From Escherichia phage YZ1, in sequence record NC_047927.1: a DNA stretch of 38,823 bases; one strand, 5' to 3'. This document shows positions 218-4,859 of this stretch, piece by piece (within the stretch, counting starts at the first letter, position 1; every line of letters starts with the position of its first letter). The position numbers and the translations under genes are program-made. The notes beneath the pieces were generated by a model that had not been told where the DNA came from, did not search any database, and saw only the letters and a program-made list of their open reading frames with translations.

Positions 218-302
218 ACCTACAGTCTAACTAACCTACAGTCTAACTAACCTACAGTATCAACCATAAGACACTCACACCCTACAGTCAAAGACCTACA
301 GT
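218..302. repeat. Left-end array of five CCTACAGT octamers (first two copies inside a tandem 16-bp unit ACCTACAGTCTAACTA)
   Basis: Direct reading: CCTACAGT at 219, 235, 251, 281 and 295. Analogous in position to the short repeat arrays next to the T7 terminal repeat. Confidence 0.8.
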
Positions 303-556: not shown

Positions 557-593
557 TTGACAAGATGTACCGACTTAAAGTAGTATGTACCAC
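557..593 (+). promoter_or_regulatory. Host sigma70-type early promoter (T7 A3-like): -35 TTGACA, 18-nt spacer, -10 TAGTAT
   Basis: TTGACA at 557-562 and TAGTAT at 581-586; the flanking sequence (GTAGACAGCCTGATAAGTC upstream, GTACCACAT downstream, GCTCTTTAACAATCTGG further on) resembles the T7 early promoter region as I remember it. Confidence 0.6.
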
Positions 594-716
594 ATCAACA
601 CGAAACAACGGTGACGACCAACACTGAAATGGTCTACCTGAAGTCCTCTGACTGAAGGGAATGCTCTTTAACAATCTGGATAAACTCTTAATGTGCGCCG
701 ATAGCGACTAACTACA

Positions 717-746
717 GGGTCTTTGAGTCTACATCTGAAGGCCCTG
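717..746 (+). promoter_or_regulatory. Stem-loop in the early leader (AGGGTC ... GGCCCT), possible RNase III site analogous to T7 R0.3
   Basis: 6-bp stem with one G-U pair immediately upstream of the first early gene; layout resembles the T7 R0.3 region. Confidence 0.3.
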
Positions 747-777
747 ACTGATAGTCACTAACTAAAGGATAAACAAG

Positions 778-1302
778 ATGAAACTGATAGGCAAAGGCAC
801 GTTCACTAAGTGCTACCTGAAGGACTGCGGGAAGCGTGTAATTCTGGTCTCTTCAGACCCAATCAAGGAGTGTATGGCGTGGGGATGGTTCCCTGAGTCT
901 CCACTGTTCCCTGAAGTCAAGATGATTGAGGTGGGCACGTATGAGATGGACTACATGCCACCAACACGAGGACTCAAGGCGCATTTAGATGACGACCAGT
1001 GGCAACTCTATCAGGTGCTGCGAGATTGCTTCTCACGGTCTCCGGTATTCTCTCGACCTGCTGACCTGTATCACAAGTGGTACGAGATATTCCAAGCTGC
1101 ACACGACAGGTCTGAGACCGAGACTGTGCGGGAAGGTCTGATGGATGTACTGATGGCGCTGGACGCTTGCGCTAACTTCGGGTCTGACATTCAGTTTGAG
1201 ATAAGCCCACGAAATGTACGGGCTGTGAACGGCAAGCTGATACTAGTGGATTGTTTCTTCCTTGTGTCCAAGCTGCAAGAGGTGAGGGCGTCAAGATGGT
1301 AA
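778..1302 (+). CDS. gp0.7-like protein kinase-domain protein (174 aa, minimal, lacks the T7 C-terminal host shut-off domain)
   Basis: Glycine-rich loop LIGKGTFTKCY near the N-terminus and a C-terminal segment EISPRNVRAVNGKLILVDCFF that aligns with the catalytic/activation segment of T7 gp0.7 ([23 protein letters not shown], from memory). First gene after the early promoter. Confidence 0.5.
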   Translation: MKLIGKGTFTKCYLKDCGKRVILVSSDPIKECMAWGWFPESPLFPEVKMIEVGTYEMDYMPPTRGLKAHLDDDQWQLYQVLRDCFSRSPVFSRPADLYHKWYEIFQAAHDRSETETVREGLMDVLMALDACANFGSDIQFEISPRNVRAVNGKLILVDCFFLVSKLQEVRASRW

Positions 1303-1445
1303 CTTATGGTCTCTGCCAGCACCACGTCACCAACGCCCGGCTTATGGTCAAGACCGGGCAGTTAAACCACGATGCGACTATGCGCCACCTGAAAGCGGTC
1401 TACGAGGGCCGCAAGCGCATACACGACAGTTTGCACGCTAAGTGA
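1296..1445 (+). CDS. Hypothetical 49-aa protein, start overlapping the kinase stop (alternatively a frameshifted continuation of the kinase gene)
   Basis: ATG at 1296 overlaps the stop of the 778..1302 ORF; GGTGAGGG upstream; open frame to 1445. Confidence 0.25.
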   Translation: MVTYGLCQHHVTNARLMVKTGQLNHDATMRHLKAVYEGRKRIHDSLHAK

Positions 1446-1512
1446 TAAACGAGAGGTCATCTAACTGATAGGTGGCCTCAAAGATTACCACTTAAATTGA
1501 TAGGGGTTAACT

Positions 1513-1617
1513 ATGAGCACTGCAATCATCTGGACTATCTCAGGCTTCGTAGCGTGGGGAATGTTTACTCTAGTCTGCAAACTACCGGTCCTTACTCAAC
1601 TGTTATGGGGCTTATGA
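1513..1617 (+). CDS. Hypothetical 34-aa hydrophobic protein (MSTAIIWTISGFVAWGMFTLVCKLPVLTQLLWGL)
   Basis: ATG at 1513 preceded by AGGGG; single predicted transmembrane helix; its TGA stop overlaps the next ATG (ATGA coupling). Below the ORF-track size cutoff. Confidence 0.3.
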   Translation: MSTAIIWTISGFVAWGMFTLVCKLPVLTQLLWGL

Positions 1618-1817
1618 CTATGAGTCTTGCACTATTGATAGCCATAGGCTATGGACTTATCGCCTACGTGCTGGTGAGAGACACCAACAAGGCACGTAAA
1701 GTCTACAAATTCAACTACGTACGTCTGGGCCGCTGGACTGTACGCCAACCTAACGGACGATTCATGCGCAATTTAGCGAACGTCTGTGATATAGCAACTC
1801 TTGGGAGCAAACTGTAA
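1614..1817 (+). CDS. Hypothetical 67-aa membrane protein (N-terminal TM helix, basic C-terminus)
   Basis: In-frame part of ORF 1497..1817; ATG at 1614 overlaps the upstream stop; hydrophobic segment SLALLIAIGYGLIAYVLV. Confidence 0.35.
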   Translation: MTMSLALLIAIGYGLIAYVLVRDTNKARKVYKFNYVRLGRWTVRQPNGRFMRNLANVCDIATLGSKL

Positions 1818-2080
1818 TGAAAACCACCGTATACACTCATAAAACATCAAGCCGTAGACGCATGGAGCAAGTCCAGCGTGATGAGTTCTTACACCGTCGA
1901 ATGATGGCAGAGGGCCATAAGTCCGAACTGAAGTGTCTGGCGTATGGTGGACGACCAATCACCGACGATGGTAAACTTCTGGTATCAGGCTGGAAGGCGA
2001 TAGACCAAAGGTCAACCATCAAGCACACGACTCATGGTGACTTCAGTCATCTTCACGCTAACCCTCTGATATGCAAGTAA
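1817..2080 (+). CDS. Hypothetical early protein (87 aa)
   Basis: ORF with TAATG stop-start overlap with the preceding ORF; no recognisable motif. Confidence 0.45.
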   Translation: MKTTVYTHKTSSRRRMEQVQRDEFLHRRMMAEGHKSELKCLAYGGRPITDDGKLLVSGWKAIDQRSTIKHTTHGDFSHLHANPLICK

Positions 2081-2085
2081 TTCTG

Positions 2086-2108
2086 ACTTAACTATCACTA
2101 TAGGACTC
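2086..2108 (+). promoter_or_regulatory. Phage RNAP promoter upstream of the RNA polymerase gene
   Basis: TTAACTATCACTATAGGACTCA; matches the window consensus TAAACTATCACTATAGG with predicted +1 G at 2103. Confidence 0.7.
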
Positions 2109-2177: not shown

Positions 2178-4859
2178 ATGAGCGTCATCTCTATTGACAA
2201 ACACGACTTCTCTGATGTGTCGAACGCCATTGAGCCGTTTAACCTGCTGGCTGACCACTACGGGCAAGACCTTGCAGTCAAACAGCTTCAGCTTGAGCAC
2301 GAGGCATACACTGAAGGCGAGCGACGTTTCATCAAGAACCTTGAGCGCCAGACTGAGCGCGGGGAACTGGCAGACAATCAGGTCGCCAAGCCTTTGATGC
2401 AGACTCTGGTGCCTAAGATTGCGCAAGCAGTCAAGGAGTGGCACGAAGGCCAAGACGGGAAGCTGTCAACCTCTCGTCCTAGCGTAGCGTTCATCATGTT
2501 GAGCACTGAAGAGAAGGCCGTCAAGGACCGCTCTATGCGCATCTCCTGTGAGTCCGCTGCGGTTATCATACTCAAGGTCATACTCTCCAAGCTGGTCAAG
2601 CCTGAAGGGATACCGATTACACCGATGGCCTCCGCGATAGGTCGCACACTTGAGGACGAAATCCGCTTCGGTCGCATCCGTGACAAAGAGAAGGAGCACT
2701 TCAAGAAGGCGATAGCTGAGAACCTGAACAAGCGAGCTGGGGCATCCTACAAGAAAGCCTACATGCAAGCGGTCGAGGCGTCCATGCTGGAGCAAGGCCA
2801 ACTGGAAGATGCATGGGGGACTTGGAGTCCTACAGAGGCTGTCCACGTTGGCATCAAGATGCTCGAGATTGTCATCCAGTCAACACAACTGGTCGAGCTT
2901 AAGCGGTACGGTGCTGGTAATGCAGCGGCTGACGTAGAGATGGTCCACCTGTCAGACTTCTGGGTCAAGAAGATGACACAACGAGGATTCAGCCTTGCGG
3001 GTATCGCTCCAGTCTACCAGCCTTGCGTCGTTCCACCTAAGCCGTGGACTGGTGTCGTAGGTGGTGGGTACTGGGCCAAAGGTCGCAGACCGTTACCAGT
3101 GATTCGCTTAGGGTCTAAGTCTGCGGTAGCACGTTATGAAGACGTATACATGCCTGAAGTCTATGACGCTGTGAATATCATCCAGAATACACCATGGAAA
3201 GTGAACAAGAAGGTATTGGACGTGGTGAACATGGTCGAGAAGCTGAACAACACGCCTATTGACGACATCCCTCAGATGGAACCGCTGAAGCCTGAGGACT
3301 ATGCTGGTGAGACCGAGGAGGAACTCAAGGCATGGAAGAAGACTGCTGCTGGTATCTATCGCCGCGAGAAGGCCAGACAGTCACGCAGATTATCACTGAG
3401 CTTTATCGTTAACCAAGCAAACAAGTTCTCTCAGTTCAAGGCCATCTGGTTCCCGTACAACATGGATTGGCGAGGTCGTGTCTACGCTGTCCCGATGTTC
3501 AACCCTCAGGGTAACGACATGCAGAAGGGTCTCCTGACTCTGGCAGTCGGCAAGCCTATTGGTGCTGACGGTTTCAAATGGCTGAAGGTCCACGGTGCAA
3601 ACTGTGCGGGTGTCGATAAAGTCACCTTCGAGGAGCGCATCAAGTGGGTGGAAGACAACCACGAAAACATCATGGCTGCTGCTAAGGCACCGATGGATAG
3701 TATTGAGTGGTGGGGCAAGTTAGACTCTCCGTTCTGTTTCCTCGCGTTCTGCTTCGAGTATGCTGGCGTAATGCACCACGGCCTGTCTTACTCCTGCTCG
3801 CTGCCGATAGCGTTCGATGGGTCCTGCTCTGGTATTCAGCACTTCAGTGCGATGCTTCGTGACCACATCGGTGGACATGCAGTAAACCTGACGCCATCCG
3901 GTAAGGTACAAGACATCTACCGCATTGTGTCTGACCGCATTGAGGAGGAGCTTAAAGTCCTGCTGATTAATGGTACTGACAACGAGATGGTCACTCACGA
4001 GGATAAGAAAACTGGTGAGATTACCGAACGTATCAAGCTGGGGACACGAGAGCTGGCCCGTCAGTGGCTGCAATTCGGTATGTCTCGCTCGGTCACTAAG
4101 CGCTCGGTCATGACTCTGGCCTACGGGTCGAAAGAGTATGGGTTCGCCGACCAAGTGTTCGAAGACACCGTGATGCCAGCGATTGACTCCGGTAAGGGAG
4201 CTATGTTCACTGAACCAAGCCAAGCGTCTCGCTTCATGGCTAAGATGATTTGGGAAGCTGTGAGTGTGACCGTAGTTGCTGCGGTTGACGCGATGAAGTG
4301 GCTTCAAGGTGCTGCCAAGCTGCTGGCTGCTGAAGTGAAGGACAAGAAGACTGGAGAAATCCTGAAGCCTTGCCTTCCGGTACACTGGGTCACACCTGAT
4401 GGTTTCCCGGTCTGGCAGGAATACCGCAAGAAGGATACCACTCGTCTGAACCTGATGTTCTTAGGGTCATTCAATCTTCAGCCTACCGTCAACAGAGGTA
4501 CGAAGAAAGAGCTGGACAAGCACAAGCAGGAGTCAGGCATTAGCCCGAACTTCGTCCACTCACAAGATGGTAGCCACCTCCGCAAGACTGTAGTCCACAC
4601 TCACCGCAAGTATGGCGTGATGTCGTTCGCAGTGATTCACGATAGCTTCGGGACCATCCCGGCTGACGCTGAGTATCTGTTCCGTGGCGTCCGTGAGACG
4701 ATGGTCGAGACCTACCGAGACAACGATGTGCTGCTTGACTTCTACGAGCAGTTTGAATACCAGCTTCACGAGAGCCAGCGCGATAAGTTGCCAGAGCTTC
4801 CGAAGAAAGGTAAACTGAATATCGAAGACATCTTGTCTTCAGATTTTGCATTCGCTTAA
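2178..4859 (+). CDS. Single-subunit DNA-directed RNA polymerase (T7 gene 1 homolog, 893 aa)
   Basis: Full-length colinear similarity to T7 RNAP: N-terminal DFSD...IEPFNLLADHYG, conserved blocks such as VHWVTPDGFPVWQEY and PNFVHSQDGSHLRKTVV, and the C-terminal FAFA. Confidence 0.97.
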   Translation: MSVISIDKHDFSDVSNAIEPFNLLADHYGQDLAVKQLQLEHEAYTEGERRFIKNLERQTERGELADNQVAKPLMQTLVPKIAQAVKEWHEGQDGKLSTSRPSVAFIMLSTEEKAVKDRSMRISCESAAVIILKVILSKLVKPEGIPITPMASAIGRTLEDEIRFGRIRDKEKEHFKKAIAENLNKRAGASYKKAYMQAVEASMLEQGQLEDAWGTWSPTEAVHVGIKMLEIVIQSTQLVELKRYGAGNAAADVEMVHLSDFWVKKMTQRGFSLAGIAPVYQPCVVPPKPWTGVVGGGYWAKGRRPLPVIRLGSKSAVARYEDVYMPEVYDAVNIIQNTPWKVNKKVLDVVNMVEKLNNTPIDDIPQMEPLKPEDYAGETEEELKAWKKTAAGIYRREKARQSRRLSLSFIVNQANKFSQFKAIWFPYNMDWRGRVYAVPMFNPQGNDMQKGLLTLAVGKPIGADGFKWLKVHGANCAGVDKVTFEERIKWVEDNHENIMAAAKAPMDSIEWWGKLDSPFCFLAFCFEYAGVMHHGLSYSCSLPIAFDGSCSGIQHFSAMLRDHIGGHAVNLTPSGKVQDIYRIVSDRIEEELKVLLINGTDNEMVTHEDKKTGEITERIKLGTRELARQWLQFGMSRSVTKRSVMTLAYGSKEYGFADQVFEDTVMPAIDSGKGAMFTEPSQASRFMAKMIWEAVSVTVVAAVDAMKWLQGAAKLLAAEVKDKKTGEILKPCLPVHWVTPDGFPVWQEYRKKDTTRLNLMFLGSFNLQPTVNRGTKKELDKHKQESGISPNFVHSQDGSHLRKTVVHTHRKYGVMSFAVIHDSFGTIPADAEYLFRGVRETMVETYRDNDVLLDFYEQFEYQLHESQRDKLPELPKKGKLNIEDILSSDFAFA

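Follow-up and report, generated by a model that had tools for sequence, protein, structure and literature searches.

Two accessory early genes for predicted small membrane proteins and a variable peptide slot in the K1F-like phage YZ1

Do two small, closely joined ORFs in the early region of Escherichia phage YZ1 form a functional unit, and do they resemble the T7 early proteins that interfere with host cell division? In phage T7, Gp0.4 inhibits FtsZ and Gp0.6 inhibits MreB (PMC5624674; PMC6965359). The initial annotation of the YZ1 genome (NC_047927.1; the whole stretch of 38,823 nucleotides is referred to below as the window) described a hydrophobic ORF of 34 aa (ORF1) followed by an ORF of 67 aa with an N-terminal transmembrane (TM) helix and a basic C-terminus (ORF2). 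It proposed that the two were translationally coupled small membrane-protein genes and that, like some small T7 early proteins, they may target the host membrane or the division machinery. We examined these proposals by comparing the locus with its relatives. The positions of the features are given in the table, together with those of the next ORF downstream (ORF3).

The window is a complete T7-like genome of the Kayfunavirus (K1F-like) group, and its early region was 88-95% identical to those of Kayfunavirus phages. A sigma-70-like early promoter was predicted from the sequence. ORF1 and ORF2 lay downstream of a hairpin of the R0.5 type and upstream of the RNA polymerase gene, in agreement with the early-region placing originally given to them. 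The hairpin had a folding energy of -22.2 kcal/mol (z -3.5). It aligned both with the site that the T3 record annotates as 'RNase III recognition site R0.5' and with the T7 element immediately 5' of gene 0.5. The consensus fold of 12 variants contained 18 pairs, 4 of which showed compensatory changes. The mRNA segment carrying ORF1, ORF2 and ORF3 probably has its 5' end at this hairpin, with RNase III cleaving there. Directly after the hairpin stands the block ATTGATAGGAGTTAACTATG, comprising a ribosome-binding site and a start, which was conserved before three unrelated types of small ORF.

At the other end of the pair, the start of ORF3 overlaps the stop of ORF2 as TAATG (1815-1819). This junction was nearly invariant in relatives, as was ttGGGAGcaaactgTAATG, at the Shine-Dalgarno sequence of ORF3, among the 21 K1F-type loci examined. 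In relatives, ORF3 usually came next after ORF2; it had a conserved C-terminal half and a variable N-terminal part, and it showed no similarity to T3 gp0.65. In four loci an HNH endonuclease gene was inserted directly 3' of ORF2. The RNase III-bounded segment and the tight junctions within it suggest that ORF1, ORF2 and ORF3 form a chain of three coupled ORFs.

Table. Features in and around the ORF1-ORF2 locus of phage YZ1 (positions in the window)
Feature	Position	Strand	Basis or detail
Sigma-70-like early promoter (predicted)	557-586		Sequence prediction
gp0.4-like gene	1296..1445		Similarity to T7 gp0.4
Hairpin of the RNase III processing type, homologous to T7/T3 site R0.5	1439..1494	+	Fold, alignment and covariation; cleavage inferred
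Shine-Dalgarno of ORF1, AUAGGGGU (TAGGAGT in most relatives)	1500..1507	+	SD/anti-SD duplex -5.9 kcal/mol, 5-nt spacing
ORF1, predicted 34-aa single-pass hydrophobic peptide, CR8 gp0.705 type (T1)	1513..1617	+	ATG 1513, TGA 1617; sequence MSTAIIWTISGFVAWGMFTLVCKLPVLTQLLWGL
Shine-Dalgarno-like G run for ORF2, within the last codons of ORF1 (..W-G-L)	1605..1611	+	Duplex -4.7 kcal/mol
ORF2, 65-aa protein of the K1F gp0.37 / T3 gp0.6 family; predicted TM helix, then basic alpha/beta3/alpha domain	1620..1817	+	phrog_2385, T3 homology, AF2
Shine-Dalgarno of ORF3 (GGGAG), inside the C-terminal L-G-S-K-L codons of ORF2	1800..1808	+	Duplex -6.5 kcal/mol, 8-nt spacing
ORF3, 87-aa basic soluble protein, K1F gp0.38 family (phrog_7066)	1817..2080	+	ORF list, family match
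RNA polymerase gene	2178..4859		

ORF1 had the highest GRAVY (1.39) among the 164 ATG-initiated ORFs of 30-80 aa in all six frames, and its best 19-residue window, residues 4-22, had a hydropathy of 1.82. A tblastn search located it in about 37 phage records, with identities of 47-100%. All nine distinct DNA versions kept the length of 34 codons and the tail motif K-L-P-V-x-T/S-Q. Compared with eight distinct relatives, substitutions were concentrated in third codon positions: for phage HHH, for example, the 30 differences were distributed 8/3/19 over the three codon positions, with a dN/dS of 0.08. The ratio was 0.12 against CtuP_B1 and 0.25 against CR8, whose protein is 47% identical, and it ranged from 0.05 to 0.29 among informative pairs (typically about 0.1), indicating purifying selection in the frame of ORF1. 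Homologues are annotated as CDS in ST0223, CtuP_B1, HHH and CR8, and the exact ORF1 sequence has already been deposited as a hypothetical protein. By these comparisons, the view that ORF1 is a genuine gene is well supported. The counterpart in the Citrobacter phage CR8, the 34-aa hypothetical protein gp0.705, has the same length (pairwise E 4e-10) and shares the motifs W..SG and KLPV.TQ, and each of the two genes stands directly before a gp0.6-like gene. In CR8, however, the small ORF and the gp0.6-like gene lie in one frame with a gap of 3 nt, whereas in the window their frames differ and the junction is either an overlap or 2 nt wide, depending on the start of ORF2.

That start needed revision. 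The 67-aa reading runs from ATG 1614 to TAA 1817 and overlaps the stop of ORF1 as ttATGAct at 1614-1617; the coordinates originally assigned (1513..1617 and 1614..1817) and the ATGA overlap were confirmed as such. The start common to all relatives, however, was ATG 1620 (MSLALL...), which gives a protein of 65 aa. From the G run within the last codons of ORF1, the distance is 8 nt to ATG 1620 but just 2 nt to ATG 1614. The upstream ATG was present only where the last codon of ORF1 ends in A; the corresponding junctions read TGATG in HHH, TAATG in 03_IJM and TAAcacATG in CR8. The deposited YZ1 protein YP_009798526.1 matched the 65-aa form exactly, and the 67-aa form was not found in the searched protein collection. 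The conserved start at 1620, the spacing of the Shine-Dalgarno-like run and the 65-aa deposit indicate that the literal ATGA overlap is probably incidental.

The junction itself was tight in a more general manner. The stop of ORF1 and ATG 1620 are 2 nt apart, the distance between the small ORF and ORF2 was -4, -1, +2 or +3 nt in every locus with a small upstream ORF, and every type of small ORF closed with a G-rich stretch, placed 7-10 nt ahead of the start of ORF2. Thus, the proposed coupling kept its structural basis, a stop and a start that overlap or are no more than 3 nt apart in every relative examined, and lost ATGA as the functional junction. From this geometry, ORF1 and ORF2 appear to be translationally coupled.

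ORF2 matched phrog_2385 (E 1.3e-31, profile positions 5-69 of 70). It corresponds to K1F gp0.37, with identities of 92-97% to its K1F and SH4 counterparts and of 41% to T3 gp0.6 (BLASTP E 2e-9), so that it belongs with T3 gp0.6, K1F gp0.37 and EcoDS1 gp0.6, all of similar size. There were 117 close clusters, almost all of them from contigs about 40 kb long, and the family was found in 213 phage records. When a K1F-type profile was run against 1.84 billion protein representatives, only 15 clusters were retrieved, including the T3/phiYeO3-12 type (E 2e-5 to 6e-5), indicating that the gp0.6-like family is narrow. One protein (P0110) was a natural chimera joining K1F-type and T3-type sequences. 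A tblastn search with distant members added Era103 gp02 (Erwinia), which is annotated 'N-terminal transmembrane domain', and members in Nifs112 (Pantoea), PP99 (Pectobacterium) and Reminis (Ralstonia). On sequence evidence, the status of ORF2 as a real gene is well supported. Its T3 counterpart likewise follows the R0.5 RNase III site; unlike in the window, no small ORF precedes gene 0.6 in T3, and the downstream gene (0.65) is a different one.

ORF2, T3 gp0.6 and K1F gp0.37 share one layout: an N-terminal TM helix, an R/K-D motif and a basic domain with an R[WF]TVR..NGRF core. In the 65-aa numbering, residues 1-19 of ORF2 had a hydropathy of 2.32, and the remaining 46 residues (20-65) contained 11 K+R against 2 D+E, a net charge of +9, in accord with the basic C-terminus noticed initially. 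AF2 modelling with a deeper alignment that included T3-type sequences (pLDDT 86) gave a helix at residues 2-28, strands at 30-35, 38-42 and 48-52, and a second helix at 55-64; the hydrophobic anchor falls within the first helix. An earlier model from a shallow alignment, a low-confidence helix-loop-helix, was discarded. TMHMM or transmembrane annotations accompany the homologues CR8_08 and Pipis, AP5 gene 0.6 has been annotated with a single transmembrane domain and no function (PMC4283147), and the same holds for further homologues (PMC4925675). The claim that both ORFs encode small membrane proteins passed the TM prediction that the initial annotation had named as its check, with the GRAVY of ORF1, the hydropathy of the ORF2 anchor and the AF2 helix in agreement, and a membrane location of both products is well supported by prediction.

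Over 33 loci, pN/pS was 0.21 in the C-terminal domain of ORF2 and 0.55 in the membrane helix. The family core residues Y11, D21, G46-R47-F48 and A59 were all present in the window. The YZ1 copy departs from the family at two sites: it has Cys at position 56 in place of the near-invariant aromatic residue of N-V-W-D-I-A (the column contained W in 31 loci, F in 1 and C in 1), and Thr at the conserved Ile/Val after the RD motif. The Cys for a near-invariant Trp is a point difference and no reason to deny ORF2 its family membership; with changes at both conserved sites, the YZ1 copy may be impaired.

Searches for a function gave little. Pfam, NCBIfam and PADLOC scans of ORF1, ORF2, ORF3 and two upstream genes returned no matches, and a Pfam scan of 35 family members gave only weak ones (best E 0.011, each confined to 7 members or fewer). 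A sequence-profile search of the PDB found no relative, no solved structure matched the ORF2 model above noise, and the BFVD matches to this model were uncharacterised Autographiviridae proteins only. A fold of the HicA or dsRBD-like alpha-beta3-alpha kind, which the topology and two weak Foldseek hits had raised for ORF2, was rejected by hhalign, and a 910-aa repeat protein in the profile search (P0118) was judged spurious, its score being the sum of ten weak repeats. The literature searched contained no functional study of the gp0.5, gp0.6 or gp0.36-0.38 families or of Kayfunavirus early genes, and no translation, membrane insertion or topology data for ORF1, ORF2 or their relatives.

To place ORF1 among its alternatives, we compared the space between the ribosome-binding site after the R0.5 hairpin and ORF2, here called the slot, in 38 related loci. 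Tiny hydrophobic ORFs of at least five unrelated types alternated there among close relatives: the 34-aa type (T1), carried by the window, ST0223, CR8 and further loci; a 29-aa type (T2, MNIGYWVCLSPVIFLIAWGLLDAIKRGSF), found in about 95 records and usually unannotated; the 55-aa K1F gp0.36 (slot type T3), in about 44 records; a 45-aa T7 gp0.5-like type (slot type T4, E 5e-7 to T7 gp0.5) at locus L024; and a 40-aa type (Rem47) in the Ralstonia phage Reminis. The K1F gp0.36 type and the 29-aa type also occurred stacked, and the slot was empty in phage T3, at loci L025-27 and in Era103 and PP99. All slot ORFs were hydrophobic, and all ended within 3 nt of the ORF2 start or overlapped it. The flanks of the slot in SH4 were about 95% identical to those of the window, yet the SH4 slot held gp0.36. 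The possibility that the 34-aa type is a frame-shifted version of the 29-aa type was ruled out, as their DNA similarity was not above that of shuffled sequences (z about 1-2). In CR44b, ORF1 was retained and ORF2 was lost, and the sequence type of the ORF2 TM helix did not track the type of the upstream ORF. The varied or empty slot, the CR44b arrangement and the untracked TM type indicate that ORF1 and ORF2 are independent modules and not an obligate pair.

The comparison also related the slot to T7. Gene 0.5 of T7 (47 aa, hydrophobic) corresponds to ORF1 in position: it, too, is the first small ORF of hydrophobic character to follow R0.5. It overlaps the next gene by ATGA; that gene encodes the soluble gp0.6A, which is unrelated to ORF2. 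T7 gp0.5 is unlike ORF1 in sequence, and position alone is common to them. At locus L024, a true gp0.5 homologue stands in the slot before a T3-type gp0.6-like gene. Judged by gene order, the slot of ORF1 is positionally equivalent to T7 gene 0.5.

Other readings of the pair were weighed against two independent genes. An obligate two-component membrane complex of ORF1 and ORF2, such as pore and regulator or toxin and antidote with a stoichiometry set by coupling, would fit the predicted membrane nature of both products and their tight stop/start junction, and one record (P0112) has the two fused as a single 94-aa ORF. That fusion, however, resembles a 1-nt frame error in a 56-kb record, and an obligate complex is quite unlikely for an ORF2 whose upstream peptide can be any of five unrelated ones or missing, whose TM helix varies independently of the upstream type, whose steadier neighbour is ORF3, and without which ORF1 persists in CR44b. 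It is very unlikely, too, that ORF1 is a chance ORF or a leader that delivers ribosomes to ORF2 and not a functional protein. Such a role would agree with its length of only 34 aa, its absence from PHROGs, the unannotated counterparts in LM33_P1 and ZH4, and the direct expression of ORF2 from the same ribosome-binding site in phages without a small ORF. Phage 6925 has ATT where the ORF1 start should be, suggesting that ORF1 is losable or dispensable. A pure leader, however, would leave the peptide sequence unconstrained, whereas dN/dS was about 0.1 with synonymous sites saturated against HHH, IJM and CR8, and the 34-aa length and KLPV.TQ were kept across Kayfunavirus, CR8 (Caroctavirus) and HHH (filed under Teseptimavirus). 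A single long ORF in the ORF2 frame (TTG 1497..1817, 106 aa), with ORF1 as an overlapping artefact, is extremely unlikely. The frame is open from 1449, and some annotations give long forms: Penshu1 (118 aa), 6925 and phiHAO1-1 (87-88 aa), and CR44b 0.41. Yet CR8 has both ORFs in one frame with a stop between them, the upstream extension was wholly different among relatives and conserved only over the ribosome-binding site, the substitution pattern fitted the ORF1 frame, and the family N-terminus was the TM helix in 15 of the 15 profile-search clusters.

Whether ORF1 and ORF2 inhibit the host division or cell-shape machinery, as small T7 early proteins do, is a separate matter. Both are early, small and non-structural, and membrane-anchored early division inhibitors occur elsewhere, such as gp56 of SPO1. 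T7 has Gp0.4 and Gp0.6, also small early-region proteins, in the same region (PMC5624674; PMC6965359). The analogy did not extend to sequence, however. ORF1 gave no alignment with T7 gp0.5 at E <= 100 and none with gp0.4, gp0.6A or the 0.6B extension, and ORF2 showed no similarity to gp0.4, gp0.5, gp0.6A or 0.6B, with only 3-4-residue noise against gp0.4 and gp0.6A/B. The T7 pair lacks a membrane span, and no long hydrophobic stretch was seen in the gp0.4 and gp0.6A sequences. The gp0.4-like gene of the window is a separate neighbour of the pair (39% identity over 41 aa, E 1e-6), and its CR44b counterpart was labelled 0.4 by the authors of that genome. Moreover, ORF2 is homologous to T3 gene 0.6 and has no similarity to T7 gp0.6A, indicating that nothing but the number connects 'gene 0.6' of T3 with that of T7. 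The link to the T7 inhibitors drawn in the initial annotation thus found no support in these comparisons, and we regard such a function as unlikely.

We consider it likely that ORF1 and ORF2 are two accessory early genes of a K1F-like relative of T7, independent modules that share an R0.5-bounded mRNA with ORF3; the part of this explanation that concerns the genes and their architecture is well supported. Both genes lie in the early region transcribed by host RNA polymerase, on an mRNA segment running from the R0.5-type hairpin through the three ORFs. ORF1 would be translated from its own Shine-Dalgarno sequence and ORF2 by coupling or re-initiation after ORF1, as the G run inside the last ORF1 codons and the 2-nt gap between stop and start suggest; ORF3 would follow likewise through TAATG. 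According to the positive-inside rule, ORF2 would be oriented N-out/C-in, with its basic domain facing the cytoplasm. Dispensability of the two genes is suggested by analogy with other T7 early-region genes: T7 Gp0.4 and Gp0.6 are non-essential (PMC5624674; PMC2680503 for gene 0.6), and T7 without genes 0.3-0.7 keeps wild-type plaques (10.1101/2021.08.23.457391).

What the proteins do is a guess, which we offer tentatively and with low confidence. They may contribute, without being essential, to the takeover of the host or to competition between phages at the inner membrane. The tethered basic domain of ORF2 would sequester, by binding it, a partner in the cytoplasm or at the membrane periphery, perhaps jointly with ORF3, and ORF1 would act by itself on some inner-membrane component; as one of several alternative peptides, its action could be specific to a host or to a competitor.

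ORF1 and ORF2 are ordinary, already-annotated hypothetical genes, and nothing found here is surprising in a T7-like early region. Their main use is in annotation: the start of ORF2 is fixed, the 34-aa gene is confirmed although several records omit it, its 29-aa sister gene is found to be missing from most records, and over-extended or wrong-frame CDS calls in relatives are flagged. Setting the T3 'gene 0.6' apart from the T7 'gene 0.6', the MreB inhibitor, means that no function should be transferred by name. More than 200 phage genomes carry a member of the gp0.6-like family, and many of these phages are candidates for therapy against E. coli, Salmonella and Enterobacter.

Only the interchangeable peptide slot is mildly new, and the conserved pairing of gp0.6-like and gp0.38 genes is of some interest as well. 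Because unrelated peptide types, sometimes stacked, have apparently been swapped between about 95% identical genomes through conserved ribosome-binding-site junctions, we put forward the speculative and rather doubtful idea that the slot is a diversity hotspot for interchangeable tiny membrane peptides, an arms-race locus, and that the gp0.6-like/gp0.38 pair could be a host-takeover module across Autographiviridae. If so, the slot peptides may, for example, neutralise membrane-embedded host defence effectors or exclude competing phages. The variable slot offers a defined and easily testable place to seek determinants of host range or anti-defence in these phages.

ORF3, a member of the K1F gp0.38 family, was a regular neighbour of the gp0.6-like gene ORF2, to which it was coupled through TAATG, the overlap of the ORF2 stop codon with the ORF3 start codon. 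Members of the gp0.38 family were conserved in the C-terminal half and variable in the N-terminal part (86, 108 or 130 aa). In Pectobacterium phage PP99, orf06 adjoins that phage's own gp0.6-like gene, and the only motif that it had in common with ORF3 was TT.GDFSHL (E 7e-4). This shared motif hints that the gp0.6-like and gp0.38-like genes form a deeper conserved pair. In related phage loci L011, L023, L027 and L030, an HNH ("endonuclease VII") gene of 140-144 aa was located at the TAATG junction directly 3' of the gp0.6-like gene, which looks like insertion of a homing endonuclease into a conserved junction.

The YZ1 copy of ORF2 differed from those of its relatives at two codons (65-aa numbering). 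Codon 22 (window 1683-1685) encodes Thr in the window versus Ile or Val in relatives, and codon 56 (window 1785-1787) encodes Cys, the residue at this position being Trp in 31 of 33 loci (NVWDIA). Both differences were also present in the deposited YZ1 protein. It is possible that the ORF2 allele of the window is impaired or adapted. ORF1, the 34-aa hydrophobic peptide gene, may be decaying in Escherichia phage 6925, in which ATT replaces ATG as its start codon (L036 601-603) and each of the three differences between its ORF1 and that of the window is nonsynonymous.

In several GenBank records, the CDS annotated in the frame of ORF2 was over-long and crossed the small-ORF slot, the space before ORF2. 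CR44b 0.41 was a wrong-frame ORF over an intact ORF1, and ORF2 was deleted in this phage. The 29-aa type of small ORF had no annotation in many records (features given as "none"). Among the proteins from the homologue searches, P0112 (94 aa; Enterobacter phage 01_vB_Eclo_IJM) had an ORF1-like N-terminus fused to ORF2, probably owing to a frame error of 1 nt in a record of unusual size (56,270 bases), and P0110 was a natural chimera with a T3-type C-terminus and a K1F-type N-terminal part. P0118, a metagenomic protein of 910 aa with ten near-identical repeats of ~90 aa each, matched the ORF2 profile (E 2e-16); the match was judged spurious, the score being a sum of weak matches (..YVRVRTWTGDDGCGN..).

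Coordinates of features in the early region of YZ1 and in related loci
Feature	Location	Strand	Basis
Tandem copies of aacctacagtctaact	window about 225-262	+	read by eye
R-site-family hairpin, 5' of 174-aa ORF at 778	window about 712-765	+	partly read by eye
49-aa ORF, K1F gp0.35 family (phrog_5058)	window 1296-1445	+	profile family match
ORF3, gp0.38 family	window 1817-2080	+	
ttaactatcactataggact, a short way 5' of RNA polymerase gene	window 2088-2107	+	sequence appearance
PP99 orf06	L040 1034-1264		
Over-long or wrong-frame CDS	L002 2050-2406 (Penshu1); L031 831-1049 (CR44b 0.41); L036, L037 642-905/908		

Further hairpins of the RNase III-type R-site family (..ACTACAGGTC...GGCCTGACTGATAGTCACT..) were found 5' of other early genes, both in the window and at several sites in related loci. 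These hairpins are consistent with multiple RNase III cuts of the early transcript, as likewise occur in T7. The ttaactatcactataggact element looks like a phage-type promoter, and a predicted promoter is annotated at the equivalent position in CR8 and CR44b. The tandem aacctacagtctaact copies lay close to the left end, with the terminal-repeat region on one side and the early promoters on the other.

T7 gp0.4 is an FtsZ inhibitor. In pairwise comparison, it showed 39% identity to the 49-aa ORF over 41 aligned residues (E 1e-6), and the counterpart of this ORF in CR44b was labelled 0.4 by the authors of that record. The initial annotation had raised the division machinery as a possible target of ORF1 and ORF2; if any gene of the region is a division inhibitor, the candidate would be the 49-aa ORF rather than ORF1 or ORF2.
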